Positions 6,757 through 62,488 of a stretch of DNA of 64,000 nt are shown here, piece by piece. Source of the DNA: a virus (lineage: Duplodnaviria > Heunggongvirae > Uroviricota > Caudoviricetes); the IMG/VR virus record IMGVR_UViG_2778260992_000001; one strand, written 5' to 3'. Both the position numbers and the translations under genes were made by a program. Under the pieces are notes generated by a model, which had not been told where the DNA came from, did not search any database, and saw nothing but the letters and a program-made list of their open reading frames with translations. Each line of letters begins with the position of its first letter. Within the stretch, counting starts at the first letter, position 1.

Positions 6757-6773
6757 TAAAACAATTTGTTTTC
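6757..6773. promoter_or_regulatory. class-1 palindrome AAAACAA-N-TTGTTTT (operator-like)
   Basis: TAAAACAATTTGTTTTC; first of more than 10 copies. Confidence 0.6.
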
Positions 6774-6806
6774 TGCCTTTTGTTGATTGAGATAATAAAC
6801 CACATA

Positions 6807-6823
6807 AGAAAACAACTTGTTTT
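6807..6823. promoter_or_regulatory. class-1 palindrome
   Basis: AGAAAACAACTTGTTTT, 13 nt upstream of ORF 6836. Confidence 0.6.
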
Positions 6824-6835
6824 GGAGTGGTTTAA

Positions 6836-7135
6836 ATGTTGAACATTACCCAAGCCTACCAGGTGGCATTGATCAGCTCATCTCATACATCAGAGGAAGA
6901 TGCTCGCCGATTCATGATCGCAAGCAATGAGCTGGATTGGGTTTCACAAATTGAGTACGGTTGCATTGTCCACGCCGGGTTACAGGATGATGTCTGGAAA
7001 GACAACTTGCGTCGATATGGTATATCCGAGGGCGCGATTTCGAACATTCAGAAGGTACTTGATGTAGGCTTCGACTCTGTACATTTCGATTGTGGCGCAC
7101 CGGTCGTTGAAGGGCTTGAGTGCTGGCAATGGTAA
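6836..7135 (+). CDS. hypothetical protein
   Basis: ATG with GGAGTGG Shine-Dalgarno; first ORF after class-1 motifs. Confidence 0.5.
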   Translation: MLNITQAYQVALISSSHTSEEDARRFMIASNELDWVSQIEYGCIVHAGLQDDVWKDNLRRYGISEGAISNIQKVLDVGFDSVHFDCGAPVVEGLECWQW

Positions 7136-7171
7136 TCCGGCAATCGCTTCATACTAGATAACGGAGAATTT

Positions 7172-7357
7172 ATGCTTAAAGAAGACTCATATCTACTAAA
7201 GGCGCTTGAAATGCGTGGCGTTGAACCTACAGTGAAAAACGCCCACGATATCTACCTTCAGTTTTCACCGGAGCTGAAACGGCTCATAAATCAATACGGG
7301 GTTAATGACTCAAGTGTTAAAGCGATGATAGATGATGAATTAGACCATCTCATCTAA
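7172..7357 (+). CDS. hypothetical small protein
   Basis: ORF with Shine-Dalgarno. Confidence 0.4.
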   Translation: MLKEDSYLLKALEMRGVEPTVKNAHDIYLQFSPELKRLINQYGVNDSSVKAMIDDELDHLI

Positions 7358-7509
7358 TCGTTATCCTATGATAATGGTTTCACTTTGAGATTGTCATTTT
7401 TCATAGCCAAAGCTGATGTTTGTGGAAGGTGGATTGATAAACGGATGCGTATTTAGGTTATACAAGTGAGAAAATTGATAATATATAAAAGCGATTTTTA
7501 TGTGATGGA

Positions 7510-8079
7510 ATGGATGTGATGGAAACCCAGAACCAACAAACAAAACCTCTGAATAACATTTATGCGTGGATTCTAGCGTTCATGCCTTTCTTCTTTGGAG
7601 TATTGCCGGAAGAGTATACCAATTACGCTATTATAATTGGGGGTGTAACTACCATCGGTTTGTTAGTAGCTGACAGAATGGCTCTATCGGAGTCTGGCTG
7701 TGAACCACCTTCAATTCTATGGGGGGTATTCCTCCTGCCTGTCTATCTCTGGAAGCGCGCGACTATTACAAAAGGCAGCAGAGTGCCATTTATCATAATC
7801 GTTGCGTCGCTGGCTTGGATTATCTTCATCGGCATCCCACACAAGGACGAGGTTGCTCTTGAAGAAGCAGCCTGCCCTCTCGTGACAACTATTCTGAAAG
7901 AGAATAACGGTTCGACTGCACCAAAATGTATGAAGGTGACAATAGAGGACAAGGTGACGGATAAGTTCTATAGAGCAACGGCTACACTAGACAATGGTAA
8001 TGACATTAACATTACTCTGGAACTTACCGGTGACAGGAACTTCTACGTCCGTGTTCCAAATGTTTATCTGAACAACTAA
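7510..8079 (+). CDS. hypothetical integral membrane protein
   Basis: Several hydrophobic helices in translation (AWILAFMPFFFGVL, FIIIVASLAWIIFIGI). Confidence 0.5.
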   Translation: MDVMETQNQQTKPLNNIYAWILAFMPFFFGVLPEEYTNYAIIIGGVTTIGLLVADRMALSESGCEPPSILWGVFLLPVYLWKRATITKGSRVPFIIIVASLAWIIFIGIPHKDEVALEEAACPLVTTILKENNGSTAPKCMKVTIEDKVTDKFYRATATLDNGNDINITLELTGDRNFYVRVPNVYLNN

Positions 8080-8225
8080 CGGTTGCAACTTATTGATAAT
8101 GGCGGTCACAATTTGATTCTTTTCTATAAGAATCCGTTGATCGCCACTACTCCCCTTCCATACCTGCAATCATACCCTTAAATATCAATAGGTTATGGTT
8201 GTTTATACAAATAAGAAAACAACTA

Positions 8226-8945
8226 AATAACAGATCAACGAAACGTCAACGCTTTCACCCGATTTGGTCTAAAAAATTGACGTTTTCACACATCACTTCT
8301 TATACCCGTAACTCTACGCAGCAGACAGCGCCACAGCGTCCAATTTTCACCACAGACGACCCAACACACTACCAACAAAAACACACGCTCAAAATCGCTC
8401 CCGTTGCGTTACGCAACCATATAAACAACTTATTTTCAGGCATAACAAAACAACTAAATAACACACATGCCATTCCCAAAAACAACCAACCTCTTTATGG
8501 CAGGCTACCGAAAAGACCCACCTCTTCTCCCCAGGCTACCGGACAACCAACCTAACTTTCACAGGCAATCCGAAAACATTCATACGCGCGATACCCACGA
8601 CACGCCATTACCCAAACAGCGAAGAAATACCAGACTCACTGAAACCCCAACGAAGCCTGTTACCGCAAGGATTCTCTCAATCCCAAAAGACACGAAACAG
8701 AACAATCACGGGAAACGCCATTACCCAATACACGAATAACTACAAAAGCCTTTCAGGCACTCCAGACAAACAACTCAAACACAATAACGAAAGCAATCGC
8801 CCACCTGCCATTACTCCATACACGGAGAAGAACAATCACCAAAACGACGAGAACACCCCATAGAAGAACCACCGCAAAACGAACGAAACCACATACACCG
8901 ACAGAGAAAACAACACACCCAATTCACCAACAGAAATAGTCGCCG
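8226..8945. other. noncoding A+C-rich (G-poor) strand-skewed region
   Basis: About 0.7 kb without credible ORF; plus strand dominated by CAAC/ACAA/AAC runs. Confidence 0.55.
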
Positions 8946-9140
8946 TATAGGACATTCTGGAAGGAGTGAGCATTAACGCCTATAGAGAGGTTGAGACAGA
9001 TAAAACACAACATGTATAGCGAAGAAGCCAGGTATGTATAAGTGGGGATGGAAGGAGGGGTGTCGCCTCCTTTTTCGTATTTATTCAACTCCTGATTTTA
9101 TCCCCCGTAACACCCCTACGGTCAGCCTTCGGTCCATACA

Positions 9141-9271
9141 GGGGAAAGGCTGCATCCCGCTACAGAAACGGCTGGGTTGCCTTTGGGAACGGCTGGAGGT
9201 TTTCAGGGAAACGGTCGAGTTGCCTGTGTGGATTTCGGGAAAAGGCTCGATGCCGGTTCAGGAACGGTGGC
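9141..9271. repeat. iteron array 1: six GRAAACGGC-like repeats at about 21-bp spacing
   Basis: Copies starting near 9144, 9164, 9187, 9208, 9239, 9261 in a G-rich noncoding stretch. Confidence 0.6.
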
Positions 9272-9600
9272 GTACCGGTATAGCGAGAGGGAGAGTTGCG
9301 GCTACCCACCTGTAATGTGCGGGAAGAAGAGAGGCGCTCACGTAGGCGGACTTGCTTACCGCTGGATTCCCTCTGAATGCCCAGCTACAGCGTAATTGTG
9401 CCAGACAGCCAACGGGTCACAATCGATTTCAGTAGGTTTTTGGGGAGAGGATTACTCTGCCACCAGCCACTTTCGGCCACTAAATCAGAATAATGTAAAA
9501 AGTGTACTCGGTACTGAACCTGAAAACTCACTGCCAAAACCACATTCACCGGAACAAAATCCTTTTTCGCCTGTGCGTTATTGCGATAATAACACCATCA

Positions 9601-15106: not shown

Positions 15107-15631
15107 TCAAAAAGGCAAAATTCGTTCAACCCAATCGAACAAAACAACTATTTTTCTACCGTTCTCGACACGTAGTGTAACCTGACAAGCATCTGCGCCT
15201 GCTGACACCCCCTCAATTTCACGGCCATCCGCCATGTACACCCTTATAGATTTGTTTGCTTTGTAGGCTTGGTTGCAAATTGCAAAAAAATCGCGGCGTG
15301 ATGGCCGATTATCGACATAATCAGGGTGAACTGTTAGTCGACCTTTGAAATCGTGAGCGATACTGTCAACCACACCTGATTCAATTGTACTAATGCGTTC
15401 AAGTGGGAGCCTTATACGATTTTCTTTGTCAAAAGGGGCTGGGCAAAGGTCAACTTTGTTACGAGATGGCATGAGGCCATAAACGTACATGCAAAACGCC
15501 TGGCCATCTTCGAGAGTGACCCTTACAGGAATTTGTTCTCTGCGCCAGAACATCAGTAGTTTTTCAACGTTAGTGTAATCTCGCGGCCAGAGTTCAGCTT
15601 GGATACCGTAGGTAATATCTTTGGTTGTCAT
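15107..15631 (-). CDS. hypothetical protein
   Basis: Track ORF 15107..15709 trimmed to internal Met (MTTKDITYG) to avoid overlap with the lipoprotein gene. Confidence 0.45.
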   Translation of the reverse strand: MTTKDITYGIQAELWPRDYTNVEKLLMFWRREQIPVRVTLEDGQAFCMYVYGLMPSRNKVDLCPAPFDKENRIRLPLERISTIESGVVDSIAHDFKGRLTVHPDYVDNRPSRRDFFAICNQAYKANKSIRVYMADGREIEGVSAGADACQVTLRVENGRKIVVLFDWVERILPF

Positions 15632-15635
15632 GTCA

Positions 15636-16058
15636 TCACAGAGTTGTTGGCAGAATGTCGATGTCACCAGAATTGCTGGTGAACACCCTGAACGCTTTTG
15701 TGTCTCCATTCTTCAGAGTCGTTTCTCGCTCTTGACGAGCGGGGTTTAGAGCACATAAACCTGCACCTTCAAGAGATGCACCCACAATTAATTCTCCGGC
15801 ATTTAAATGAAAAGTCGCTTTTTCGCCTGTAGCCAGTTTTGCGACAGTTTCGCCATTGATGAAAATGGAAGCATCACATCCAGCTCCTACAAAACCTGTG
15901 TCTCTCATTACCACCAACGTAGCTGGCGCTGCGCTTTGATACTTGAACACTTTGGCCTGCGGTGCTGGTTTGGCGTCATGGATTGATATTGGACGTGATT
16001 GGCACGCGGTAAGCATCAACACTGGTAACGTTAGTAGAGGGAGAAGCGAGTATTTCAT
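15636..16058 (-). CDS. putative lipoprotein
   Basis: Signal peptide with lipobox LTAC (MKYSLLPLLTLPVLMLTAC); start moved to this Met. Confidence 0.55.
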   Translation of the reverse strand: MKYSLLPLLTLPVLMLTACQSRPISIHDAKPAPQAKVFKYQSAAPATLVVMRDTGFVGAGCDASIFINGETVAKLATGEKATFHLNAGELIVGASLEGAGLCALNPARQERETTLKNGDTKAFRVFTSNSGDIDILPTTL

Positions 16059-16407: not shown

Positions 16408-17967
16408 CTAATCTCGTTTCAGAACTCCAAAATCGAATGCTCCATCAATAGGCAATACACCTTCTGCAAAGCCAGGTGTGGTGTCGATGATGTGTTTTCG
16501 CTCATAAGAGTGAGACAACAGGTATTTGTTGCTAATGTCAATGAAATCAGTGATAAAACACACGTTTGCCTGATTTTTTTTGGCTCGTAAGCCACGACCG
16601 ACACGCTGTCTCATTTCAACTTCTGCTTTCCCACCACCAGCAAGAATGACCGCACCAACGCTTGGCACATCAACACCAACATCCAGAATAGTCGAGCCTA
16701 TTAAAACATCTATTTCACCAGACGCTAAACTATTCAGCTTTGCTTGCCTTGTCGTCTGGTTAGATTCCCCATAGATGAAATCAACTTTAAGACCTGACTC
16801 CTTCATCATCTCCATCAGGATTTGCCCGTGGCGTTTAAGACGAACCAGAGTCATGCAGTTGAGTGAATGTTGCTTATAAAGCAATGCCTCGCGCACTATG
16901 GCCTCGTTACGTCCCAAATTATACACGATCCCCAACTGATAAGCCTTTTGGTAGGCGGTGCTCATACCAACTCTAAAATTAAGGTGTTTGTTGGCAAGTT
17001 CCGCCTTGATTCTGACCTCGTCTGGCTTGTAAGCAACTTTATGATAAAGGAAGTACGGTTTTGCCAGAATGCCTCGATCAATCAGGTACTTTTCTGTGAC
17101 TTTAATTTCAATTCGACCGGCCACAGCCATCAGACGCATGTTGGCTTCTGTAGAATCCTTCATGAACGGCGTGGCCGTAAGCGCCAGACGATAGTCTGCG
17201 TTCACACATAATCTGGCAATGTCATAGAAATTAGAGCCTGAAGACTCATGCGCTTCTTCCAGAATAAGCAGAGACACACTTGAAAGGAAGCGTTTCACTA
17301 GCTCCCGACGTTTGAGGTGGTAGCTCTTTTTATCTGGTGTTGCATCGCGTGGTGGTTCTTCAAGGAAACTTGCCAGAGTTTGAACTGTAGCGACGTTGAT
17401 ATGTCGTGATACCTGGAACTCACCCGAGCCAATGACTCCAACCTTTTGGTCTTTTAACCACGGTTCGCCATTTTCGGCGCGGTAGTCGATGGATCTCTGG
17501 AAGTTTTCGGCCATTTGAAACATCAGAACAGAGCGGGTTGTTAAAAATAATGTCATTCGACCGATACGTGCAGCTGCTTTGCAGGCAACGTTAGATTTCC
17601 CGCCACCAGTAGCGATCTGCGCAATCATCATTCCCTCTCGAACCAGTGTTTCCACAGTCTGATCCTGATATGCATAATCAGGATTGTATGGGAATGGGTT
17701 AACCGCCGGATTTGGTTTACCAAGCGCCGGGGCTTTGTCTTTGCGGATATGAACACATTTGATGCCCGCCTTGTTCAAGTTCGCCGCTACAGGCTTGGCA
17801 AAGCCAGCAGGGAACGAGTTTTTACTCCAGTTGAACATCGTGCTTGTGCCCTTCCAGTCGCCAGTCTCGACTTCGTAGCTCAACATTTGCTGCACCAGTT
17901 GCTTTACCTTGTCATCTGCGCCAGAAATAAGCGCATTTACTGCGTTAGATACAATCCGAACAGTCAT
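16408..17967 (-). CDS. SF2 DEAH-type helicase
   Basis: Motif I ATGGGKS, motif II LEEAH, motif III TATP, motif VI QRVGRGLR. Confidence 0.8.
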   Translation of the reverse strand: MTVRIVSNAVNALISGADDKVKQLVQQMLSYEVETGDWKGTSTMFNWSKNSFPAGFAKPVAANLNKAGIKCVHIRKDKAPALGKPNPAVNPFPYNPDYAYQDQTVETLVREGMMIAQIATGGGKSNVACKAAARIGRMTLFLTTRSVLMFQMAENFQRSIDYRAENGEPWLKDQKVGVIGSGEFQVSRHINVATVQTLASFLEEPPRDATPDKKSYHLKRRELVKRFLSSVSLLILEEAHESSGSNFYDIARLCVNADYRLALTATPFMKDSTEANMRLMAVAGRIEIKVTEKYLIDRGILAKPYFLYHKVAYKPDEVRIKAELANKHLNFRVGMSTAYQKAYQLGIVYNLGRNEAIVREALLYKQHSLNCMTLVRLKRHGQILMEMMKESGLKVDFIYGESNQTTRQAKLNSLASGEIDVLIGSTILDVGVDVPSVGAVILAGGGKAEVEMRQRVGRGLRAKKNQANVCFITDFIDISNKYLLSHSYERKHIIDTTPGFAEGVLPIDGAFDFGVLKRD

Positions 17968-18032: not shown

Positions 18033-18049
18033 TGGATTGTAGCAATAAA

Positions 18050-50959: not shown

Positions 50960-51628
50960 ATGACCAAGATCTTTGTGGTTGGCGGCACAAAGGGCGGGCC
51001 TGGCAAATCCACCGTTGCCCAGCAAATTGCCGTTTGCCTGAAAGTCAAAAAGAAGAAGAAGGTTTATATCACTGATATAGATATTCAGCGCACGACAACA
51101 AGCTGGTGTGAAGACCGTCGACAGAACGAAGACCTTGAGCTGATTCCTTTTGCATACGTTCAGGATGACATCATTAAGCACCTAAAATCGCTTCAGGGTA
51201 GAGCTGAGTTTGTAGTGGTAGATGCTGGTGGCTTTGACTCCGAAATTCAGCGACAAGCGATGCTGATGGCCGACGTTATCATTATCCCGCTGCGTCCTAA
51301 GCGTCGTGATTTGAAATCTTTACGTGACATCGATCCTATTATCGACAATGTTCGTAATGTAAACGATAAAGTGAAGGTCCGCGCGGTCATGAACCAGTGC
51401 CCGGCTTTGCCATCACAAGTGTCTCGCATTTTGGCGGCTAAAGAGATTGTCGAGACGTTTGGCATCGAGTCTGCGCCAGTCAATTTATATAACCGCAACG
51501 TCTATGATGATGCGGAAGAGTCTGGTCGTTCTATCTTTGAAATGACCGGTAGCGAGCGCGACAAAAAGGCGGAAGCCGAGTTTGAAGAATTTGTAGATTA
51601 TCTGTTGAGTCTGGAGGAAGAAGAATAA
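50960..51628 (+). CDS. ParA/MinD-family partition ATPase
   Basis: Deviant Walker A GGTKGGPGKST; 222 aa; followed by small overlapping gene. Confidence 0.8.
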   Translation: MTKIFVVGGTKGGPGKSTVAQQIAVCLKVKKKKKVYITDIDIQRTTTSWCEDRRQNEDLELIPFAYVQDDIIKHLKSLQGRAEFVVVDAGGFDSEIQRQAMLMADVIIIPLRPKRRDLKSLRDIDPIIDNVRNVNDKVKVRAVMNQCPALPSQVSRILAAKEIVETFGIESAPVNLYNRNVYDDAEESGRSIFEMTGSERDKKAEAEFEEFVDYLLSLEEEE

Positions 51629-51987
51629 TGTCCATGAAAATGGGTGACCTAGCAAAGCGCAAAGAGCCTGATGCACCGGCTAAGAACACAACTCCTTTGC
51701 GCCAACCAGTCAGACCACAGGGACGCCCGACTCGTGGCAAAGAGAAAATTAAAAGCCGCACAATGTCACTGGAGGACGAATACTTCGAACTGCTGGAGAT
51801 GATGAAGTTCATCCCTCGCTTCGAGAAGTTCACTCGTTCTGACGTGATTCGAGCAGCCATTTTCCATCTGGCAGAGAAGTCACCGCAGGAAATCGAGGAC
51901 ATCGTGAAATTGAATGAGGCGATCACCGCTGCCGATGTCACGATGCGTACCGATGAAATCAAACGAGAGTTGATGAAGAAAGGTTAA
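51628..51987 (+). CDS. ParG-like ribbon-helix-helix centromere-binding protein (putative)
   Basis: 119 aa, basic Pro/Arg-rich N-terminal tail, C-terminal RHH-like segment; start overlaps parA stop. Confidence 0.5.
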   Translation: MSMKMGDLAKRKEPDAPAKNTTPLRQPVRPQGRPTRGKEKIKSRTMSLEDEYFELLEMMKFIPRFEKFTRSDVIRAAIFHLAEKSPQEIEDIVKLNEAITAADVTMRTDEIKRELMKKG

Positions 51988-51990
51988 AAA

Positions 51991-52025
51991 TCATGCATTG
52001 GCGCAATGTACGCGCCAATGCATGA
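51991..52025. terminator. perfect 14-bp inverted repeat TCATGCATTGGCGC-N7-GCGCCAATGCATGA
   Basis: Between convergent parG-like and GIY-YIG genes; terminator or protein-binding site. Confidence 0.55.
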
Positions 52026-52039
52026 GTACAATGTCAGTT

Positions 52040-52807
52040 TTATGCCGCGCTAACACTATGTTCAGTCCTAACCACTCCAACCTTCACAAAAGGGCTACCG
52101 TAGCTTGGTGGCTTCTTGATTAATTTGCCAACATACAGTTTTCTAATATGCTCATCGGCTATTCTGCCAACAAATTCATAACGTTTTGTGTCGGGGCCAA
52201 GAGCTATATCCCTTGTAAAGTACTGCTGAGAACCGGCTTTGACCCAGCATTCAATCTGATAAACTTCCATTATCAGCCCACCATATGTAGCGTAGGCATA
52301 TTTGAGATTCTCGTCTCTTGGAACCTTTGCCCATACGCCACGCGTAGCTTCATATAATGCCAGAGCGGACATTCCTGACTTGTAGGTGCTGTTTAGCAGG
52401 AAGGCAAGACCGGCGTGCTCAGGAGCAATTTCAGTTTCCTCTTGCAGCACTAAGTGATGGTAGGCGTCCAGTGATATTCTGCCCATCATGGAACCACTTC
52501 CTCGTACCTTATTCGTAAGCTCTCCGACCCCCATAAGGTCGATGCATGTCGCCTCAACAAGTTTGGCTGTGGTTTCATCCATACCATGACGAAGTATATC
52601 TATGCCTAATTTTTTATTAGCCAAAAGTTCTTTGATCCGCATGGATTTGGGAGAGTCATCGGGATACTTGATGTGATCGAGACAACGAGTCGATTTGCCT
52701 TTTCCTATGTAAAACGGTCTTTTCATCTTGTCTTCTGTATCATAGAGACAGTAAACATAGTATTTAGCCTTATCCAATGATCTCGCGTATACCGATAAAT
52801 CGTCCAT
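52040..52807 (-). CDS. GIY-YIG nuclease-domain protein (possible homing endonuclease)
   Basis: N-terminal YVYCLYD..(11)..PFYIGKGK motif; opposite strand to neighbours. Confidence 0.6.
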   Translation of the reverse strand: MDDLSVYARSLDKAKYYVYCLYDTEDKMKRPFYIGKGKSTRCLDHIKYPDDSPKSMRIKELLANKKLGIDILRHGMDETTAKLVEATCIDLMGVGELTNKVRGSGSMMGRISLDAYHHLVLQEETEIAPEHAGLAFLLNSTYKSGMSALALYEATRGVWAKVPRDENLKYAYATYGGLIMEVYQIECWVKAGSQQYFTRDIALGPDTKRYEFVGRIADEHIRKLYVGKLIKKPPSYGSPFVKVGVVRTEHSVSAA

Positions 52808-52918
52808 TATTGCATCTCTTAGCTACTGACTAATGCGTTCTATTTTACACATAAGTTTTTAATCAATTTAACAGGCTCAAAGTGTAGAGCTTCTGGGCGT
52901 CTAAGACGACAAGTTATG

Positions 52919-52973
52919 CCTGCTTCTGTATATATTTAATAAGTTACTTATTATTTATATATACAGAAGCAGG
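52919..52973. repeat. 55-bp near-palindromic element, copy B (inverted copy of A)
   Basis: CCTGCTTCTGTATATATTTAATAAGTTACTTATTATTTATATATACAGAAGCAGG. Confidence 0.8.
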
Positions 52974-53058
52974 TCTTTTAAAAAGACACCCACCAGAACA
53001 ACTCCCTTCCGTTTCCACTTCCAAAAACTGTCACCAGTCGCTATCATCCGCTCATTGT

Positions 53059-53080
53059 GATAAGTAAGTAACTACCTACC
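53059..53080. promoter_or_regulatory. class-2 element
   Basis: GATAAGTAAGTAACTACCTACC upstream of ORF 53092. Confidence 0.45.
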
Positions 53081-53091
53081 AGGTGAGCCAC

Positions 53092-53832
53092 ATGAGCCAA
53101 ATCTTTTTTGATACCATTGACAACGACCAGTACGACTTCATGACAGAGTGGAATACCGCTGTTATGGACAAGTGGGTCGCTGAAAACATTGGTTTGTCGC
53201 GCTGCAAAGACGAGGCTGAACTCTTCGAGACGAAGTGGTTTGATTACCGCGATATGCATCCTCTCATGGCCACCTGTCTTTTTACGGAGGCATACAAACG
53301 TCAGTACTCAAATATCATGCTGACGCACGGTCGCGAACACTTTGAAACAGCTCCGTTCACCACCGGGTTAAAACGCCTGCCTTATCAGGAGTTGTCGACT
53401 GCCAATAAAACGTCTCTATGGAAAGCACGCCAGTTTGCTGACCGCTATTGCTGCTCATACGACTACTTTATCTCCACCGTTCTTTCCGCAGCTGCACGAC
53501 GGCTGTGGGACAAGCTGCCGCGCCCACAGCATTTATGGCAGCCAGAGCTGATTGAGATATTCGAAGAGAAATTAGCCAGACGCGCAACAACCCGTCTGGA
53601 TGACTCTCTCGTTAGCTTTAAGCATATGGGAGACATGCAGTTCAACCCGATTCAGGAAAGCTATTTTGAGTGGATTCTGGAGCGTTTACGCACCATCCCC
53701 CGCAGCAAGCGCATACGCGCAATTTTCTCCGCTATCTGGCTAATGGAAATCGTTCCAGAGCGCCTTATTTCCGCCCACTTTCCAGAAGAACTGGAAGAAG
53801 CACGGCGGTTTATTGATCCCCTATCTAATTAA
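53092..53832 (+). CDS. hypothetical protein (possible replication initiation or helicase-loading role)
   Basis: ATG 53092; function guessed only from position before DnaB-like helicase. Confidence 0.45.
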   Translation: MSQIFFDTIDNDQYDFMTEWNTAVMDKWVAENIGLSRCKDEAELFETKWFDYRDMHPLMATCLFTEAYKRQYSNIMLTHGREHFETAPFTTGLKRLPYQELSTANKTSLWKARQFADRYCCSYDYFISTVLSAAARRLWDKLPRPQHLWQPELIEIFEEKLARRATTRLDDSLVSFKHMGDMQFNPIQESYFEWILERLRTIPRSKRIRAIFSAIWLMEIVPERLISAHFPEELEEARRFIDPLSN

Positions 53833-53840
53833 CTAATACT

Positions 53841-53857
53841 AGAAAACAATTTGTTTA
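53841..53857. promoter_or_regulatory. class-1 palindrome
   Basis: AGAAAACAATTTGTTTA, 19 nt upstream of helicase start. Confidence 0.6.
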
Positions 53858-53875
53858 AAAAACAAAGGAAAGCAC

Positions 53876-55216
53876 ATGACCGAACTTTGCCATACAGGAC
53901 GCGGGCTGTCCGAAGAGTTTGATGAAGATTTCCAGAACAGACTGACGGCATATTTTTGTCGTGATCACGAGTTTCTTACTCGTGCGGGAGATCTGGTTGT
54001 GCCTAGCCAATTTGCCAATGCGGCCAATGCCATATTGGTTAATATGGTTTCGGGCTATTACCGTATGTACAAGAGCGCGCCCTCTTCATCTGCAATTCTG
54101 GATATGCTTAAGCGTGCGAAACGCGATAAGACTATCCGTGAGGAACTATTCGCCGATGTTGTTGCTGCGTTTAAGCGCATCCTTGCAGAAAAATTGTCCG
54201 ATACCTCGTACATGGTTGACCAGGTATCAACCTTCGCAAAAAGCGTAGCGTTTGATGATGCTCTGATTAAGGCTGCTGAACTGAAAGAGAAGGGCGACTT
54301 TCAGGGGGCGATGGCAATCATGGCCAAGGTTCAGCAGATTGGATCGAATGAAGCGACCGGAATCTATGACTACTACACCTCCGCAAGTGAGCGATTGAAA
54401 GCGCGTGAATATGAGGCTTCAGAGGAGTATGTACCAAACAGTATTACAACTGGACTCCCTCTTCTCGATAGGTTGCTGTACCAAAAAGGCTGGGCAAAGC
54501 GCGAAATGGTGCTCTTCATGGGGTTCGCTAAATCCGGTAAATCGACCGCAATGGGTGAGTTTTCCATAAACGCAACGCTTGCTGGCTACAATGTTCTGTA
54601 TCTCTCGCTGGAGGTTCACACCAACATTTTGTCCGATCGTTTTGATGCAAGATTGTCGGAGACGGAAATGTCCAAGCTGGTGGAACGGCGCGATGAAGTT
54701 CATCGTAAGTTGGCAGAGTTGGGAGCCACGAAGGGGATTGGTAGTTTGTGGGTTGTTGAGCGTCCGTCAGGAAGTATGTCACCGGCAGATCTGGACCGTA
54801 TGCTTAACAGCATGAAAGCCAATGGCATGGTGCCTGACATGGTTGTTGTCGACTACGCAGATTTGATGCGTGCCAGTTATGACCTTCGTGATGATCGCGC
54901 CAATATTCGTAGTATCTACACCGATTTACGTGCTCTTTATGACAAACATAACGTTGCTGGGATCACGGCATCGCAGACAAACCGTGAAGGTGGCGCGTCA
55001 GAAGTTGCCACAATGATGCACGCTGCCGACAACATCGAAAAAGTACGTATTGCTGACCTGGTAATAACGATCAACAAAACCGAAGAAGAAGAAGCGAAAG
55101 GAGAGGCTCGTCTCTACTTTGCTGGTTCGCGTAACCAGCAGGGAGGGATCAGCATTCGCGTTAAACAAAACCTCGAACAAATGCGCTTCATTGAGCGAAT
55201 CTTAGACGTTACCTAA
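53876..55216 (+). CDS. DnaB-like replicative helicase
   Basis: C-terminal RecA-like domain with Walker A GFAKSGKST and DnaB-type downstream motifs; 446 aa. Confidence 0.75.
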   Translation: MTELCHTGRGLSEEFDEDFQNRLTAYFCRDHEFLTRAGDLVVPSQFANAANAILVNMVSGYYRMYKSAPSSSAILDMLKRAKRDKTIREELFADVVAAFKRILAEKLSDTSYMVDQVSTFAKSVAFDDALIKAAELKEKGDFQGAMAIMAKVQQIGSNEATGIYDYYTSASERLKAREYEASEEYVPNSITTGLPLLDRLLYQKGWAKREMVLFMGFAKSGKSTAMGEFSINATLAGYNVLYLSLEVHTNILSDRFDARLSETEMSKLVERRDEVHRKLAELGATKGIGSLWVVERPSGSMSPADLDRMLNSMKANGMVPDMVVVDYADLMRASYDLRDDRANIRSIYTDLRALYDKHNVAGITASQTNREGGASEVATMMHAADNIEKVRIADLVITINKTEEEEAKGEARLYFAGSRNQQGGISIRVKQNLEQMRFIERILDVT

Positions 55217-55220
55217 AAAA

Positions 55221-55247
55221 TAAGCGTGGAGAACACCTCCACGCTTG
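55221..55247 (+). terminator. hairpin AAGCGTGGAG-AACA-CCTCCACGCTT
   Basis: 10-bp stem right after helicase stop; weak U-tract. Confidence 0.5.
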
Positions 55248-55297
55248 ATTCATTGGTGAAACAACTTTTCTTTTGCCAAACCACAAAAGAAAAACAC

Positions 55298-56479
55298 ATG
55301 AGCCTTTATGTTATATCAACATTTAGGTTGGTCACAATATTGCCTGTTAAAAGTGGAATTATCGTGAGCGAGCTGAAAGAGCTAATTACCGAATTAGATT
55401 TTGAACAATGGTTGGATACTGAAGGTATCGTTTATCGACGTGGAGGCGTGAGTGCTCGCGGTCGTGAAGTGAATATCAAGGAGTGTCCGGTATGCGGCAG
55501 CTCCAACTGGAAGGTATATTTCAATCTGACCAGTGGCGTCGGTAAATGCTTCGCTGGTGATCATCCCGAAGAGATTCAGTTCAATAAGCTGGTCTTCCTC
55601 AAGCACTACAGCGGCAAATCACGACGACAGTTCGAGGAATATGTGCAGAACGCTCTTCTTTCCCAGGGGTGGGCACCAAAGAAAGAAGAGATAGTGCTTG
55701 CAAGCACAGTCGAGTTAGAGGGACCACTTGCACTCCCTCGTCATTACGAACTTCCTATAGATGGCCGTCTTCCAGACTATCTGGTTGAACGAAACATATC
55801 GCCTGAAATGGCAAAGTATTTTGACCTACGATACTGCGTCGAAGGCAAGCACGCTTATGTTGATCCGTATACAGATCAGGTTAAAGGACAGATATTCGAT
55901 ATGCGAATACTGATACCGGTTTACGATCTGGATGGGGTAATGAAGACATTTCAGGGGCGAGACATTACCGGTACAGCTGAACGTCGCTACCTCTTTCCTA
56001 TGCAGCTTCCAGCTTCAGGTAAGTTTCTCTACAACGGCCATAATGCGCTCGGCAAACAGACTGTAGTTGTCTGTGAGGGGGCGTTCGATGTTATGGGGGT
56101 TAAACGAGCTATTTTTGATGAAGAAACATTACGTGATTACGTGGAACCGATAGGAACGTTCGGGATGCATCTATCTGGCAACACCACTCAGGATGCAGAA
56201 GATCAGTTGGGCGCGTTCCTGACGCTCAAGGCGCGTGGATTACGTAATGTGATCATGATGTGGGATAGTGAAAAGCAAGCTATACGCAACACGATGGCCG
56301 CAGCCAGGCGATTGACCAGTATTGGTCTTAATGTCAAAGTTGCGTGTTTGGGCGAGGAAGGACTCGACCCCGGCGATGCGACACCGGGGCAGATTATCAA
56401 AGCCTACTATTGCGCAAAACCTTACTCACGACAGCTTGAACTTTTAAGCAAGGTAAAAGGTATAGCAGCATTAGTTTGA
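55298..56479 (+). CDS. DnaG-type DNA primase (zinc ribbon plus TOPRIM)
   Basis: CPVCGSS..(17)..KCFAGDH zinc-binding motif; TOPRIM-like VVVCEGAFDVMG and MMWDSE; start uncertain (ATG 55298 or GTG 55364). Confidence 0.7.
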   Translation: MSLYVISTFRLVTILPVKSGIIVSELKELITELDFEQWLDTEGIVYRRGGVSARGREVNIKECPVCGSSNWKVYFNLTSGVGKCFAGDHPEEIQFNKLVFLKHYSGKSRRQFEEYVQNALLSQGWAPKKEEIVLASTVELEGPLALPRHYELPIDGRLPDYLVERNISPEMAKYFDLRYCVEGKHAYVDPYTDQVKGQIFDMRILIPVYDLDGVMKTFQGRDITGTAERRYLFPMQLPASGKFLYNGHNALGKQTVVVCEGAFDVMGVKRAIFDEETLRDYVEPIGTFGMHLSGNTTQDAEDQLGAFLTLKARGLRNVIMMWDSEKQAIRNTMAAARRLTSIGLNVKVACLGEEGLDPGDATPGQIIKAYYCAKPYSRQLELLSKVKGIAALV

Positions 56480-57508
56480 ACCAGTATTAGTCACGTAAAC
56501 ATTGACCGAAAATGATTTAACTTCTGTGTTGAAGTTGTCAGTCATTACCGCGAGGTAGGCATTCTTGGTATCTCTGAATTGCTTCAGGATGATTTGAACG
56601 TTATCGGTGCAAACAAACGAGGTAGCCAGATTGCCTCCTTTCTCTGAAAAATCCTTTAGGAAAGTGCAGTCAATTTTGCCATCATTAGCGGTGAAGGTGG
56701 CATCATCACCCTGCCAGGTAAATGTTGCGTTAACGCCTTTATCAATGGATTTAGCAATAAGTCGTTGAGTGGAGGATTTTGCTTTAGATCTTGCTGCTGA
56801 TGGTTGGTATTTACCGCTTTCTTTTAGTTCTGCAATGTAATCACAGCCATTTTTATCTTCTTTATCGCAAGCTGCCTGATAAAGCTCAGCTGCTTTTTTA
56901 TAATCTTTTTTAACCCCTTCACCATACTCATACATAATGCCAAGATTCGCCAATGCAGATGCACTGCCTAGTTCGATTCCTTTTTTATAATACTCTATTG
57001 CCTTTTTGTAGCTTTTTGGCACGCCTGCGCCAACATAATATAACTGTCCTAAATATGACGCAGATTCAGGGTCGCCAGCCTCTACTGCAAGTTTGTGATA
57101 TTTCAGGGAAAGTTTTTGGTCTTTCTTACCCGCAAGTCCTTTATGATAAATAACACCCAGATTGTGATAAGAGTTGCCTCCAGCTGCATCACCAGCTTTC
57201 TTAAAGAGTTCCTCTGCCTTTTTGAAATTTTTATCAACCCCATACCCAAGGGCATACATTATACCTAGAGCATTAAACGCTTCTTTGTTCCCCTTAGAAG
57301 TCGCCAGTTCAAGCCATTTTCTGGCTTCATCGTAGTTTTTTTCGACACCATGAATACCTTTCATATAGTCGATACCTAAAGCACTCTGTGACTCAACGTC
57401 GCCTGCTTTTGCCGCATCGATCAGCTTTTGTATTTCATAGGCATGTGCACTCCCCGAAACAAGTAATAGCGACAACATAAAGAAAGATATTGGTTTGAAA
57501 TGTTTCAT
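56471..57508 (-). CDS. secreted Sel1-like repeat (SLR) protein
   Basis: Signal peptide MKHFKPISFFMLSLLLVSGSAHA; repeated A-x-x-LG-x-xY..G-x-GV..K/D..A-x-x-WY-like units; extra C-terminal domain. Confidence 0.7.
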   Translation of the reverse strand: MKHFKPISFFMLSLLLVSGSAHAYEIQKLIDAAKAGDVESQSALGIDYMKGIHGVEKNYDEARKWLELATSKGNKEAFNALGIMYALGYGVDKNFKKAEELFKKAGDAAGGNSYHNLGVIYHKGLAGKKDQKLSLKYHKLAVEAGDPESASYLGQLYYVGAGVPKSYKKAIEYYKKGIELGSASALANLGIMYEYGEGVKKDYKKAAELYQAACDKEDKNGCDYIAELKESGKYQPSAARSKAKSSTQRLIAKSIDKGVNATFTWQGDDATFTANDGKIDCTFLKDFSEKGGNLATSFVCTDNVQIILKQFRDTKNAYLAVMTDNFNTEVKSFSVNVYVTNTGSN

Positions 57509-57627
57509 TTTTGGATTTTCACAAGATGGTTAGGTGGTTGTGGCTACTCGGTGTAAGGCTTTGTAATCACCGATTGGTAAGGTTACTTCAATTTAGCTTA
57601 ACTGTCAGCATACCCAATCGCCGAAAA

Positions 57628-57649
57628 GATAAGTAGATGATTACTTATT
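57628..57649. promoter_or_regulatory. class-2 palindrome
   Basis: GATAAGTAGATGATTACTTATT upstream of ORF 57690. Confidence 0.5.
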
Positions 57650-57689
57650 AGTGTGTAAGAATACTGCCATCTGTTAGCTAGGAGTTGGT

Positions 57690-58472
57690 ATGAAAGACGA
57701 AATTCAGAAATTAGCCTGCGACATCATTGATAAAACTGGTTTAGAAATCAGCGAGAGCAATCGGCTAGACATCATTGAAAAAGCCGTCAATACGGCAATG
57801 GCTCATATCGCCACTCGTTTAGTCGAGATCCCGCTACCGGGGCTACCTTATCTGAAGGTTAAGTTGCGCGTATGGGGCGAACCTGCACATGCACGACGTT
57901 CTGCATTAGTTGTTTTTGTACGCAAAGAAAACTTACGAACTCTAAAAGTGCAGGTTGGGGCGTGGTTTGATGGCAGAGTCATCTATACAGATACCATTAT
58001 CTGTCCTCCAGGTGACGAACATATTGAAGCCGTCATTCGAGAATCAATTCGAGCTATGCGCAGTTTAGCTTTGCTGGAAGACAAGCAAAACTTTGAAGAT
58101 TACTTGCTGTCGGTAAAAGCTGAACCAACATTGTCTCTGAAAGCCGATTTCGTCACCCCGACAAATCTGTTGGAGGTTTTGATTAATAAAGGGGCTAATG
58201 ATGCTGTAAACCTAATCAGGGAGAGCGAATATTCGACTCTTTGCGACATGTGCAAAAGCCAGTTGGATCTTGTGCATATCATTGTTGATGCGGGGAAGGC
58301 GTGTGATGGCGTAATGGCGGAATTTGCTGGGAAGATGGTCAGGATTGCTAACGAATTACCGATGATAGAGCAAGAGGCCAAATCATACGCCACCAATCAT
58401 GTCACAGAGCTTCTTGCCCCCTATCGCTTAGAAAGCGATCAGCGCAAGATGATTAGCTGGGGAAGTTGGTAA
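57690..58472 (+). CDS. hypothetical protein
   Basis: ATG after AGGAG. Confidence 0.5.
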   Translation: MKDEIQKLACDIIDKTGLEISESNRLDIIEKAVNTAMAHIATRLVEIPLPGLPYLKVKLRVWGEPAHARRSALVVFVRKENLRTLKVQVGAWFDGRVIYTDTIICPPGDEHIEAVIRESIRAMRSLALLEDKQNFEDYLLSVKAEPTLSLKADFVTPTNLLEVLINKGANDAVNLIRESEYSTLCDMCKSQLDLVHIIVDAGKACDGVMAEFAGKMVRIANELPMIEQEAKSYATNHVTELLAPYRLESDQRKMISWGSW

Positions 58473-58539
58473 GCTCTCTGTGTGTCGTTTTTTACGCAAA
58501 TAATGATAGGTAAGCACAAGATTATTTCTGGCGGTAATT

Positions 58540-59010
58540 GTGAAAGCTGATTTGTCAAAAATCCCTTCTATTTCAGGAAATAACGGTTATTCACTTCGTT
58601 GTGAGGAAGTAAAGATAAACGGTGAGTCGGCATATTGCAGCTATTCCGTTTGCCAGCACACCATTCTTGCCTTCAAAGAAAACCGTCTTCCTCGAACTTC
58701 TTTCCAGTCGTGCGCAACCGCTATTAAAGCAGGCAAATGTAAGGCGTTAAAAATGATGGTTGAAGAGATTCGTAAAGGAGAATCTCTGTATTTCGCAGAT
58801 ATGACCGCACTCATTAAGGAGGTTGAAGAACGGAATAAACAAGCCAGATCTATAAAACGAAAACGTGACAGTGTAACGATTAATAGCATGGTTAAGAAGA
58901 GCGCCACATCACAAACAGCGATCACTGACGTGTATGCGGCGTTGCTTGAAGAAACAACAAAAGAAACACATGAGCAAATCGATCAACATATGGAGGCAAA
59001 ACAACAATGA
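58540..59010 (+). CDS. hypothetical Cys-rich protein
   Basis: GTG start; N-terminal C-x-x-x-C/C-Q-H cysteines; overlaps ligase start. Confidence 0.4.
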   Translation: MKADLSKIPSISGNNGYSLRCEEVKINGESAYCSYSVCQHTILAFKENRLPRTSFQSCATAIKAGKCKALKMMVEEIRKGESLYFADMTALIKEVEERNKQARSIKRKRDSVTINSMVKKSATSQTAITDVYAALLEETTKETHEQIDQHMEAKQQ

Positions 59011-60329
59011 AAAAGTTGATCGCACTTAAGCATAAGCTGGACGAAATGAAAGCTATGGGAACCAATGCAAAAAAAGAGGCATTGGCCAACATGGATGACT
59101 TTGAACAAAGCATGGTTTCATTGATGCTCAACCCTTTCATCCGTTTTGGGGTAAAGAAATACAAAGTGGCAGAGCCGCTTAGTGAGTCCGTCCCAAGTGA
59201 CGAAAAAGCCATTGATGTACTGAATAAGCTGGCCTCTCGCGAGCTGACGGGGAACGCAGCAATAGCTGCTGTTGAGTCTATCGTGGCGTCAATGTGCGCC
59301 GATGGGCAGGACGTGTTCCGTCGTTTCCTCTTAAAAGACCCGAAAGCGGGTGTTGGGATTAGCCTATGCAACAAGGTTTTTGAAAATCCCATTCCGAAAT
59401 TCGAGGTGCAGCTGGCGTCACCGTATAAAGAAAAAGGCGACAAATACCCCTTCAAGCCAAACCCTAAAGCAAAATGGCCGATGATTGGCAGCCTTAAGCT
59501 CGATGGTTTGCGAGTAATTTGCGAGGTTATTGTTGACGAAGAAGAGGTTAACTTCCTTTCTCGTACTGGTAATCCAATCACGTCTCTCGATCACCTAAAG
59601 CCAGCCATGCTCGAATTAGGCAAACTTTCAGGCCACAAACACATCTTCTTCGATGGTGAAGGCACAGCCGGTTCATTTAACCAGTCCGTATCTGCATTGC
59701 GCAAAAAGAACGTGCAGGCAATTGGCGCTATTTATCATGTTTTCGACTTCTTCCTACCGGAATGGCGAGCACAGGCTAAATCCAAAGAGTATGCAAAGAC
59801 ATGTATGAAGCTGAAAGAGCGCCTGGCTATGCTCGTGGCGTTGTTCAAAAACGATCGCAGTGAAGGCTACGCACAAGACATTCACCTGCATCCGTTCTAC
59901 ATCATCCATAGCCACGAAGACTTCATCGAACGCTTCATGAAACGCCTGGACGATAACGAAGAAGGGGAGATGGGCAAAGATCCGAACTCTGTTTACGAGT
60001 TTAAACGTACCCGCAGCTGGTGGAAGTTAAAAGACGAAGATTCAGAAGATGGTGAAATTATCGATTTTGAGCCGGGCGACCCGGACTCTGGTTTTGCCAA
60101 CACGCTTGGAAAAATTGTTATTCGTCTTGAAAACGGCGTCATCGTTCGTGCGAGCGGCATTAAGCATAAATATCTGGACGAGATCTGGAACAACAAAGAG
60201 AAGTACCGTGGTCGCATTGTCGAGGTTCATTGTCACGAGAAAACACCTGATGGCAGCTTACGCCACCCACGACTGAAATGGCCGCGTTGCTTACGCGATA
60301 CCGAAGATCGAATCGGAGATAAAGAATGA
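59007..60329 (+). CDS. ATP-dependent DNA ligase
   Basis: Adenylation motif I KLDGLR (Lys in KxDG) and downstream nucleotidyltransferase-like motifs; 440 aa. Confidence 0.8.
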   Translation: MKKLIALKHKLDEMKAMGTNAKKEALANMDDFEQSMVSLMLNPFIRFGVKKYKVAEPLSESVPSDEKAIDVLNKLASRELTGNAAIAAVESIVASMCADGQDVFRRFLLKDPKAGVGISLCNKVFENPIPKFEVQLASPYKEKGDKYPFKPNPKAKWPMIGSLKLDGLRVICEVIVDEEEVNFLSRTGNPITSLDHLKPAMLELGKLSGHKHIFFDGEGTAGSFNQSVSALRKKNVQAIGAIYHVFDFFLPEWRAQAKSKEYAKTCMKLKERLAMLVALFKNDRSEGYAQDIHLHPFYIIHSHEDFIERFMKRLDDNEEGEMGKDPNSVYEFKRTRSWWKLKDEDSEDGEIIDFEPGDPDSGFANTLGKIVIRLENGVIVRASGIKHKYLDEIWNNKEKYRGRIVEVHCHEKTPDGSLRHPRLKWPRCLRDTEDRIGDKE

Positions 60330-61008: not shown

Positions 61009-61152
61009 TTTTGTGTATAAGATGACTTTGTTTTCGTTGAGACGCGACTGTTTGAACTTAAATACAAGTGCAAACGAAGAAGTCTATCTGGCAGTAGCCT
61101 AATAAGCCAAACACCAGCGAGGTCAGTTTCCAGCCTCGTTACCGAAATGGGA

Positions 61153-61500
61153 CACACTGAGCGAGTGTGATTGCAGAACGCAGGAGGGAACATGAGTGTT
61201 CCCTCCGATGAAGTAACAGAATGGGCGGTCGGTATATTTTCAACTCCATATGACTCCCGGATTCTTAGCCACTGACCGCCCATCCTGTTACGTCATTTTG
61301 TTCAATTATGTCGTTTATACTGGGTTAAAAAGCGGCGACGTAGCCCGGCTGGTATGGTTAGCCAGCACACAACGTTGAGGCCATTACATTTTTATCAATT
61401 CTAAGGTTCTATTCACAGAGATACCGGCGAGCGTTGATATGTAACATGTTGGGCAAACATTCAATCGGAGTAGTGGCCTCAACGTTGTGAAGACAGGATT
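61153..61500 (+). ncRNA. candidate structured RNA region (strand and function unknown)
   Basis: Nested perfect stems at 61183-61206, 61215-61230/61274-61289 and 61368-61382/61475-61489 in an ORF-free stretch. Confidence 0.35.
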
Positions 61501-61753
61501 GTTGTGTAGGTTTAACCACTGTTGCCATTGGTGCCTGTTTTCACAACAAATGATTCCATACATCACATTATATAAATTACAAAGTAGGTGCTGTCCTCAG
61601 AAACATCATCTACTTAAAGATTTAGCCTTCTATTGAGCGAAGTCGAAAGCGTCTGGCACTAACGAAAAGTGCAAGTAGCGGTGCGTTTCCTGGCAGAAAC
61701 TAACACCGCCGCGATTGGCACTGTTGAGTAATAAATACTGTCAGTGCTGAATT

Positions 61754-61828
61754 GATGGTGTAGCTCAGCGGTAGAGCAGTTGGCTGTTAACCAACTGGTC
61801 GGTGGTTCGAATCCACCCACCATCGCCA
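61754..61828 (+). tRNA. tRNA-Asn (GUU)
   Basis: Manual cloverleaf: 7-bp acceptor GATGGTG/CACCATC, anticodon loop CTGTTAA, T-loop GGTTCGAATCC, 3' CCA; differs from E. coli tRNA-Asn. Confidence 0.8.
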
Positions 61829-61833
61829 ATTTA

Positions 61834-61920
61834 GGGGAGTTAGTCCGTAGAGGTAGCGGTGTAGACTGTAAATCTACTGTCATGGCGACTCGGGTGGTTC
61901 GACTCCATCACTCCCCACCA
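61834..61920 (+). tRNA. tRNA-Tyr (GUA), class II
   Basis: Acceptor GGGGAGT/ACTCCCC, anticodon stem-loop GTAGA-CTGTAAA-TCTAC, long variable arm, 3' CCA. Confidence 0.75.
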
Positions 61921-61924
61921 AATT

Positions 61925-62000
61925 GCCGGTTTAGCTCAGTTGGTAGAGCAGTCGCTTTGTAAGCGAATGGCCAGCGGTTCGAGTCCGTTAACCGGCACCA
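61925..62000 (+). tRNA. tRNA-Thr (UGU)
   Basis: Acceptor GCCGGTT/AACCGGC, D-arm GCTC..GAGC, anticodon loop TTTGTAA, T-loop TTCGAGT, CCA; one G-A mismatch at top of anticodon stem. Confidence 0.65.
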
Positions 62001-62224
62001 ATACAACGATAAGATCATTACGGTTAATCGTCGTTCATGTGCACAATGACTGGTCGAAAGGTAGTGATCTTACCGTTGTGGTGGATTCGCAGACTGATGC
62101 GATAGCTTTCTTGGATGTTAGGGAAATGCGGCCGCAAATCTTCCCTTTCGCGAGCGGTGATCGTCCGTAGTCCTAATTGGCTGCACCGTATGCCGGAGAT
62201 TCAGTACCGGCCACCACAACGGCC

Positions 62225-62311
62225 GGAGAGTAGGGAGCATGGTGCTCAAGCGGTCTTGAAAACCGTCCCATTGCGCAAGCGATGATGGTTCGATTCCATT
62301 ACTCTCCGCCA
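62225..62311 (+). tRNA. tRNA-Ser (UGA), class II (D-arm irregular)
   Basis: Acceptor GGAGAGT/ACTCTCC, anticodon stem-loop GCGGT-CTTGAAA-ACCGT, long variable arm, T-arm GATGG-TTCGATT-CCATT, CCA. Confidence 0.6.
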
Positions 62312-62313
62312 GA

Positions 62314-62391
62314 CACAGCGTTGAGCGGTTTGGCCTTTTAATCAACTCGATTAAGACTCCGCTAACATAAACCAGACCGCTCAACGCTGTG
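62314..62391. repeat. 16-bp perfect inverted repeat CACAGCGTTGAGCGGT / ACCGCTCAACGCTGTG
   Basis: Starts 3 nt after tRNA-Ser; arm sequence resembles the 61368/61475 inverted repeat. Confidence 0.7.
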
Positions 62392-62465
62392 ATAGACAAT
62401 TACGGCAGACGTTCTTAACCATAGCTTGCTAACATCCTAGCAACACTTTTTTCAGCGCAAAATTC

Positions 62466-62488
62466 AAAGGGGCTTCGGCCCCTTTTTT
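62466..62488. terminator. bidirectional rho-independent terminator GGGGC-TTCG-GCCCC plus T6
   Basis: Terminates rightward tRNA transcript; also lies just past stop of leftward gene 62504..63766. Confidence 0.8.

Follow-up and report, generated by a model that had tools for sequence, protein, structure and literature searches.

The DNA considered here, in the following called the window, is a stretch of 64,000 nucleotides from the Caudoviricetes virus record IMGVR_UViG_2778260992_000001. We are highly confident that this window is an internal slice of about 64 kb (roughly 60%) of a circular SSU5-supergroup phage-plasmid of about 110 kb, which is kept as a free plasmid and carries the housekeeping-looking genes apbC and metG as cargo. 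A first-pass annotation had described positions 6757 to 62488 as a complete-looking siphovirus genome with partition and replication modules and no integrase, next to chromosomal apbC-metG. From the presence of a partition system without an integrase it had concluded on plasmid-prophage maintenance, an inference which is correct, and it had seen a conflict with the position beside apbC-metG, which is not real. The puzzle disappears because metG and apbC are carried by the phage-plasmid itself. The element is already known, as both the SSU5-type phage-plasmid lineage and the metG cargo have been published before. Its lineage is the Escherichia/Shigella group with the phages Cyrano (pLF82), CMS-2020a and PhiR41_1 and the pWPMR2-like plasmids.

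Collinearity with circular phage-plasmids

When the whole window is compared by BLAST, positions 1-63923 are collinear with NZ_CP195946.1, the closed circular record of plasmid p1 from Escherichia coli strain C6 (109,926 bp). The identity is 96-99.9% and is interrupted by five short replaced segments, among them a GIY-YIG gene in exchange for a P-loop NTPase gene and a different allele of the FljA region. In p1 the collinear path descends from record position 64681 to 1, crosses the origin and goes on from 109926 to 109168. Both supposed junctions of the element (6757 and 62488) are crossed without a break, and as both flanks run on collinearly in p1 these positions are not its bounds. Over its full length the segment 1-7500, with apbC, metG and the 3.4 kb on their left side, agrees with p1 at 99.9% identity. 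Nor is the genome complete, since about 45 kb of the p1-type replicon falls outside the window; this part encodes RepB, DnaE, NrdAB, the thymidylate synthase ThyA, DfrA51, RecA, exonucleases and a tyrosine recombinase. The RepB-family plasmid initiator, of the pHCM2/SSU5 type, is found at 89870-91084 of p1, beyond the part shared with the window, and tblastn did not find a relative of RepB in the window (E at least 0.13).

The phage relatives agree with this picture. Over the virion region the identity is 97.6% to CMS-2020a, 97.5% to Cyrano, 93.7% to PhiR41_1 and 80.5% to SSU5; for SSU5 the value was obtained with window 20001-45000 at the nucleotide level and covers 87% of this segment. Along the window, synteny with the SSU5 backbone begins at about 8 kb and reaches 61.8 kb.

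The packaging and head segment (21400-27000) is present in 240 of 5,426 complete E. coli genomes. It occurs there at 250 places, all of which are plasmid, and a chromosomal occurrence of the virion module was found at none of them. The carriers of at least 80% of window 1-7500 number 98 among the complete E. coli records and 77 among the PLSDB plasmids; most of them measure 105-120 kb, and the listed PLSDB carriers of the apbC-metG block are mostly of 105-113 kb. The great majority of the PLSDB plasmid matches to window 1-7500 (650 of 710) are predicted to be non-mobilizable. Published work on relatives points in the same direction: Cyrano has a copy number of about 5.5 per cell, is inducible by ciprofloxacin and forms siphovirus particles (PMC9928086), and pWPMR2-like phage-plasmids are frequent in Shigella sonnei as well as in CC131, CC23 and CC73 of E. 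coli (bioRxiv 10.1101/2025.09.12.675607). The database entry of PhiR41_1 is that of a phage and names K-12 MG1655 as its host.

The apbC-metG block

On the evidence of its neighbours, apbC-metG is a phage-plasmid cargo of 3.29 kb, trimmed to two coding sequences and their shared divergent promoter region, and not host chromosome. Its place is the variable early/moron region, where it is bordered by a humD-like gene on one side and by a DUF5983 gene on the other. The block had been taken for the chromosomal locus, and indeed apbC and metG are divergent neighbours on the E. coli chromosome too, arranged as in the window. E. coli chromosomes, however, match only window 3387-6675, with about 90% identity. 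Compared with a K-12-type chromosome, homology begins 4 nt inside the stop end of apbC and ends 1 nt past the stop of metG, and in this comparison no homology extends into the chromosomal neighbours yehE or DUF4132. A comparison with the chromosomal metG region had been proposed as a check; its neighbours there (yehE/yehD and DUF4132) are not in the window, where phage-plasmid genes flank the block on both sides.

The same arrangement is widespread. A total of 209 complete E. coli records match at least 80% of window 2900-7300, and therefore the humD-like and the DUF5983-side flanks must be present in them too, as such a coverage would otherwise be impossible. Three deposited phage genomes (Cyrano, CMS-2020a and PhiR41_1) hold the block between the same neighbours. 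In Cyrano, block and neighbours are CYRAN_98-101, with CYRAN_99 annotated as "MinD" and CYRAN_100 as "MetRS". Shigella plasmids in PLSDB match the cargo region as well, whereas apbC-metG is absent from SSU5. The humD-like gene also matches P1-like plasmids of about 90-100 kb with 84-87% identity.

The true start of metG is the ATG at 4641; the TTG at 4512, where the program-made open reading frame (ORF) begins, is an artefact. The encoded MetG protein has 677 amino acids and is identical to the K-12-type protein at 670 of them (99.0%). The cargo metG is a functional gene under purifying selection, because the HLGH and KMSKS motifs are intact, only seven substitutions are found and the ratio of nonsynonymous to synonymous divergence (dN/dS) is 0.02. 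The cargo apbC is 94.5% identical to E. coli apbC at the amino-acid level and only 82% at the nucleotide level. The block would thus give the host a second, intact methionine-tRNA ligase gene. According to the summary of Tam et al. (doi 10.1101/2024.10.27.24316207) in PMC12452169, phage-plasmid-borne metG leads to a subpopulation of Shigella sonnei that survives antimicrobials better.

Recombinase and attachment sites

The absence of a recombinase from the window is borne out. No tyrosine or serine recombinase is found in the p1 annotation by the Prokaryotic Genome Annotation Pipeline (PGAP) of the matching part, nor among the ORFs of the non-collinear segments, for which other assignments or none were obtained, and a tblastn search of the window with the tyrosine recombinase of p1 gave only matches with E above 2. 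It is equally true that attachment (att) repeats are lacking: between 6300-7600 and 61600-63000 the longest shared word is 10 nt, which is the modal value for shuffled sequences and thus chance level.

It had also been considered that an integrase might lie outside the window. The closest relatives do encode a tyrosine recombinase (Pfam Phage_integrase 4.7e-10), about 0.5-1.6 kb beyond the equivalent of the right end of the window. In p1 it is located at record position 107590-108693, where it lies together with grxA, a helix-turn-helix regulator and a low-GC ORF between the tRNA cluster and cobT. In SSU5 the tRNA-Asn is directly followed by the cobT-like gene and there is no recombinase at that position. 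This recombinase is no evidence for chromosomal integration because it is located inside a free circular plasmid, and so it explains no integration. The persistent genes of SSU5-type elements, which are phage-plasmids, include tyrosine recombinases, and Cre of phage P1 is a tyrosine recombinase which serves multimer resolution and not integration (PMC7969092). Most simply, the enzyme of this lineage would by analogy be a multimer-resolution enzyme like P1 Cre. We also considered that the low-GC stretch and the recombinase of p1 could together be an islet integrated at the tRNA-Ser, and dropped this idea as no tRNA repeat of at least 12 nt is found in the 9 kb downstream.

Alternative explanations

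Several points speak against a free circular phage-plasmid. The last 77 bases of the window depart from every SSU5-like record. The extrachromosomal circle is deduced from the relatives, as the window contains neither replicon ends nor a closure. What is said here on plasmid maintenance, inducibility and the effect of metG is carried over by analogy from the published relatives.

On plasmid NZ_CP149566.1 the final 77 nt recur with a relE toxin gene on one side and an IS91-family transposase on the other; they are also found on other, unrelated plasmids and at nine chromosomal places. Probably they represent the edge of a mobile element which inserted where the relatives have grxA and the tyrosine recombinase. 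One could therefore suppose that we deal with the same phage-plasmid but that beyond the window this copy is joined, as a cointegrate, to the chromosome or to a further replicon. This could have come about through the mobile element from 63924 onwards, through the tyrosine recombinase of the family, which the relatives do possess, or through RecA acting between the plasmid and chromosomal metG copies, which are 94.5% identical over 2 kb. A few SSU5-like matches in records of 139-218 kb suggest that cointegrates exist. Nevertheless we consider a cointegrate improbable: none of the 250 places is chromosomal, insertions of insertion sequences (IS) or cargo are common in otherwise free phage-plasmids (bioRxiv 10.1101/2025.09.12.675607), and the window itself gives no indication of it.

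Lower still, to a degree that we regard as practically negligible, is the probability of a siphovirus prophage which is integrated beside the chromosomal apbC-metG and entered without an integrase, as implied by the unusual integration mechanism formerly considered. Such a prophage would agree with the chromosomal arrangement of the two genes and with the lack of a recombinase within the window. However, positions 1-3382 to the left of apbC are phage-plasmid sequence and not yehE/yehD, the chromosomal homology is limited to the block, the virion module is never chromosomal and there are no att repeats. Thus, nothing is integrated. A chimeric assembly which artificially joined phage genes and apbC-metG has an equally negligible standing, as for it speaks only the apparent oddity of housekeeping genes inside a phage, whereas the identical join with the same flanks is found in about 209 independently assembled complete records, closed circular ones among them, in PLSDB plasmids from several laboratories and in the three deposited phage genomes. 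We therefore retain the free SSU5-type phage-plasmid with apbC-metG as its cargo.

Mosaic ancestry of the cargo block

The two cargo genes differ in their distance to the chromosomal homologs. For metG the synonymous divergence (dS) from E. coli is 0.27, which equals that between E. coli and Escherichia sp. E1V33. For apbC it is 1.5, an inter-genus value; dS is about 1.4-1.7 against E. coli, Escherichia sp. E1V33, Citrobacter and Kluyvera, and 2.6 against Salmonella arizonae. The ratio of the dS values of apbC and metG is 5.7 for the cargo block, as compared to 1.6-2.1 in control species pairs. The intergenic region is divided as well: the apbC-proximal part (4484-4590) aligns better with Citrobacter and the 47 metG-proximal nucleotides (4594-4640) with E. 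coli. This suggests a recombination breakpoint between apbC and metG, which could have arisen, for example, when a host allele converted metG.

It is possible, though we put it forward only tentatively and hold it for rather doubtful, that the block was captured in another genus and that metG was later converted from an Escherichia chromosome, which would be an exchange of essential-gene alleles between phage-plasmid and host. Such an order of events would fit the inter-genus distance that separates apbC and the adjoining half of the intergenic region from all enterobacterial chromosomes sampled, and the Escherichia-like character of metG and its proximal promoter. If true, the same homology could permit occasional RecA-mediated integration at metG. 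Among the 80 loci listed in the search for a donor, chromosomal identity over the block reaches 88.7% at most. Only two of these 80 loci are of the Escherichia type: one is from Escherichia sp. E1V33, and the other stands in a record under the title Enterobacter hormaechei, where the matches of metG and apbC to the window are the same as those of the K-12-type E. coli locus.

Gene content of the window

The gene content described earlier is largely confirmed: terminase, head, lambda-like tail, lysis genes, ParA, DnaB-like helicase, primase (with a weak match), ligase and tRNAs are all recognized by Pfam, PHROGs or ARAGORN (Table 1).

Table 1. Features of the window. Coordinates are window positions; a point in the strand column means that no strand is given.
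Feature	Position	Strand	Evidence and remarks
SSU5-supergroup phage-plasmid slice	1-63923	.	Collinear with NZ_CP195946.1; virion-region identity to Cyrano, CMS-2020a, SSU5
DUF551 protein, variable early/moron region	248-952	+	Pfam DUF551 5e-12; same gene in p1
HumD/UmuD-like S24 peptidase, left neighbour of block	2956-3345	+	Pfam Peptidase_S24 1.6e-9; PGAP "HumD family translesion DNA polymerase"
apbC (mrp), iron-sulfur cluster carrier ATPase, cargo copy	3383-4483	-	Pfam ParA/NUBPL 3.7e-102
metG, methionine-tRNA ligase, cargo copy	4641-6674	+	Pfam tRNA-synt_1g 5.4e-166
DUF5983 protein, right neighbour of block	6836-7135	+	Pfam DUF5983 1.3e-11; after metG in p1, Cyrano, PhiR41_1
FljA-like repressor of phase-1 flagellin, accessory	15107-15709	-	Pfam Flag1_repress 2.5e-84
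DEAD/DEAH-box helicase	16408-17967	-	Pfam ResIII, DEAD, Helicase_C; SSU5 counterpart SSU5_124
Four-gene block: two ParB_N-domain proteins, two ABC-type ATPases	18032-20947	+	Pfam ParB_N 3e-13, 1.5e-8; ABC_tran 6e-13; phrog_886
55-bp AT-rich near-palindrome, copy 1	21248-21302	.	Just upstream of small-terminase-like gene
Packaging/head module: DNA-binding small-terminase-like protein, large terminase subunit (TerL), portal, scaffold-like DUF6651, major capsid	21419-26718	+	PHROGs, PGAP
Terminase large subunit	22051-23307	+	PHROGs 6e-64
Portal	23334-24908	+	PHROGs 1e-140
Major head protein	25843-26718	+	PHROGs 1e-105
Lambda-like tail tip module: tape measure, M-, L-, K- (C40 peptidase), I-, J-like, tail fibre	31828-47817	+	PHROGs, PGAP names in p1
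Tape measure, 1530 aa	31828-36420	+	PHROGs E=0
Lambda J-like central tail fibre	38962-43695	+	PHROGs E=0
Tail fibre, 1342 aa	43789-47817	+	PHROGs E=0
Lysis cassette: holin-like protein, endolysin, spanins	48021-49454	+	78.8% nucleotide identity to SSU5 holin/endolysin/Rz-like spanin region
Endolysin	48331-49050	+	phrog_873 9e-89
Partition operon: short Walker-type ParA (222 aa) and overlapping 119-aa partner	50960-51987	+	Pfam MipZ, AAA_31, CbiA
ParA	50960-51628	+	phrog_164 ParA-like 4e-51; Pfam MipZ, AAA_31, CbiA
119-aa ParA partner, putative centromere-binding adaptor	51628-51987	+	ORF overlaps parA stop codon
GIY-YIG domain protein, accessory slot	52040-52807	-	Pfam LEM-3_GIY-YIG 5.5e-7
55-bp AT-rich near-palindrome, copy 2	52919-52973	.	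Inverted vs copy 1, 2 mismatches; upstream of replication module
Replication module: conserved unknown protein, DnaB-like helicase, primase, ATP-dependent DNA ligase	53083-60329	+	Pfam, PGAP names
DnaB_C helicase	53876-55216	+	Pfam DnaB_C 3e-13
Primase, weak match	55226-56479	+	Pfam weak DNAG_N/Toprim_2
ATP-dependent DNA ligase	59007-60329	+	Pfam DNA_ligase_A_M 1.5e-12
Sel1-repeat protein	within 53083-60329	-	Pfam Sel1 1e-37
tRNA cluster Asn-Tyr-Thr-Ser, four tRNAs	61754-62311	+	ARAGORN; same four annotated in p1
420-aa ORF, accessory	62504-63766	-	GC ~0.33; phrog_18168 (function unknown) 2.5e-214
Start of sequence foreign to SSU5-like backbone	63924-64000	.	Every SSU5-like record stops matching at 63923

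The block of ParB_N and ABC-type proteins lies directly upstream of the terminase genes and is equivalent to SSU5_125-129; its ParB_N proteins may not be a partition ParB. The FljA-like gene is found within a segment which is replaced as compared to p1, and it could alter the flagellar antigen expression of the host.

Partition operon

The partition genes had been described as ParA/ParG-like. The ParA assignment holds: the ATPase domain begins at residue 2-4, and the protein is thus of the short Walker-box type without an N-terminal DNA-binding domain, which is the form of ParA in type Ib partition systems. Its coding region is 85% identical to the SSU5 counterpart at the nucleotide level. The designation "ParG-like" for the 119-residue partner, which would imply a small ribbon-helix-helix protein, is not confirmed, as neither phmmer nor a family profile found a relative in the PDB below E=0.4, and Foldseek found none below E=4 with a weak model; this AlphaFold (AF2) model has a confidence score (pLDDT) of 63 and is based on an alignment of 12 sequences. 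The partner family is confined to SSU5-like replicons of about 105-120 kb of Escherichia, Salmonella, Klebsiella and Citrobacter. The N-terminal approximately 45 residues of the partner are basic and predicted to be disordered, the C-terminal part is helical, and the motif RPQGRPTRGK within the basic tail is invariant across the family.

We found nothing convincing in the way of iterated centromere repeats within 50700-53150. The only structures in this region are a perfect inverted repeat of 14 nt at 51991-52025, just after the partition operon, and the second copy of the 55-bp palindrome. The stretch 51986-52914 between the operon and this palindrome is an accessory slot: it holds the gene of the GIY-YIG (LEM-3-like) protein here, that of a P-loop NTPase of 564 amino acids in p1 and other genes in SSU5. 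The slot looks like a swap site for defence-like cargo.

Palindromes, tRNAs and right end

The two copies of the palindrome bracket a block of 31.6 kb with the virion, lysis and parA genes, and both are also present in p1. The records of SSU5 and Cyrano begin inside copy 1, their coordinate 1 corresponding to window position 21285/21286. Possible roles of the palindrome are that of a packaging site, an operator or an origin.

A scan of the window with Rfam reports only three tRNAs (Asn, Tyr and Thr); the tRNA-Ser is below the cut-off and is supported by ARAGORN and by the PGAP annotation of p1. The ORF of 420 amino acids which adjoins the tRNA cluster has no Pfam family, is represented by two separate coding sequences in p1 and is absent from SSU5.

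Comparison with known systems

Closest to the window are p1 and NZ_CP014490.1, a plasmid of E. coli G749, which share with it humD, apbC, metG, the virion genes, ParA, the replication genes and the four tRNAs at 96-99.9% identity. At the right end p1 differs, as it continues into grxA and the tyrosine recombinase where the window has foreign sequence. Cyrano (pLF82, OV696614, from E. coli LF82) resembles the window with 97.5% identity over the virion region and apbC-metG and with the same neighbours of the block. Unlike the window, in which none was seen, it has the toxin-antitoxin modules KacT, RelE and HicAB, and its accessory regions differ. The pWPMR2-like phage-plasmids of Shigella sonnei and E. 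coli are, judged by their description, alike in belonging to the SSU5 supergroup and in carrying a second methionine-tRNA ligase gene; copy-number variation has been reported for them (Tam et al., medRxiv 2024).

The founders of the supergroup, SSU5 (NC_018843) and pHCM2, agree with the window in gene order between about 8 kb and 61.8 kb, at 67-86% nucleotide identity. Shared with SSU5 are the ParB_N/ABC block, the genes from terminase to tail, lysis, ParA and its partner, the DnaB helicase, primase, ligase and the tRNA-Asn. SSU5 lacks apbC-metG, the humD-like gene, three of the four tRNAs, the 420-residue ORF and the adjacent tyrosine recombinase region.

P1 is more distant. It is a myovirus, whereas the element described here encodes a siphovirus lambda-like tail. 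The partition proteins are different, and beyond the humD-like S24 peptidase gene, which P1-like plasmids share at about 85% identity, no backbone homology to these plasmids was seen. The likeness to P1 lies in the plasmid replicon and partition system in place of integration and in a tyrosine recombinase, Cre in the case of P1 (PMC7969092). We considered an N15-type linear plasmid prophage as well as a P1-type element and rejected both, as the backbone homology is to SSU5 and the records are circular.

Proposed life cycle

From the gene content and the published work on the relatives we suggest the following life cycle. In the lysogenic state the element would not integrate. Instead it would replicate as a low-copy plasmid from the RepB-family initiator encoded outside the window, and the short ParA and its small adaptor (50960-51987) would provide for segregation. 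DNA damage would then induce the element, which could use a replisome of its own with the DnaB-like helicase, primase and ligase encoded in the window and with DnaE, NrdAB, ThyA and dihydrofolate reductase encoded outside. Finally, the DNA would be packaged by TerL and the portal into a siphovirus particle with a lambda-like tail tip, and the cell would be lysed.

Implications

SSU5-type phage-plasmids are common, as about 4% of the complete E. coli genomes carry the Cyrano/pWPMR2-like lineage. Housekeeping-looking genes beside phage genes are no marker of a chromosome boundary. Two minor points may be new, namely that the apbC-metG block is of mosaic origin and that the 55-bp palindrome occurs as a pair. 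The biological weight lies in what has already been published, namely that a second copy of metG, which is linked to antimicrobial survival, is spread by infection together with other cargo.

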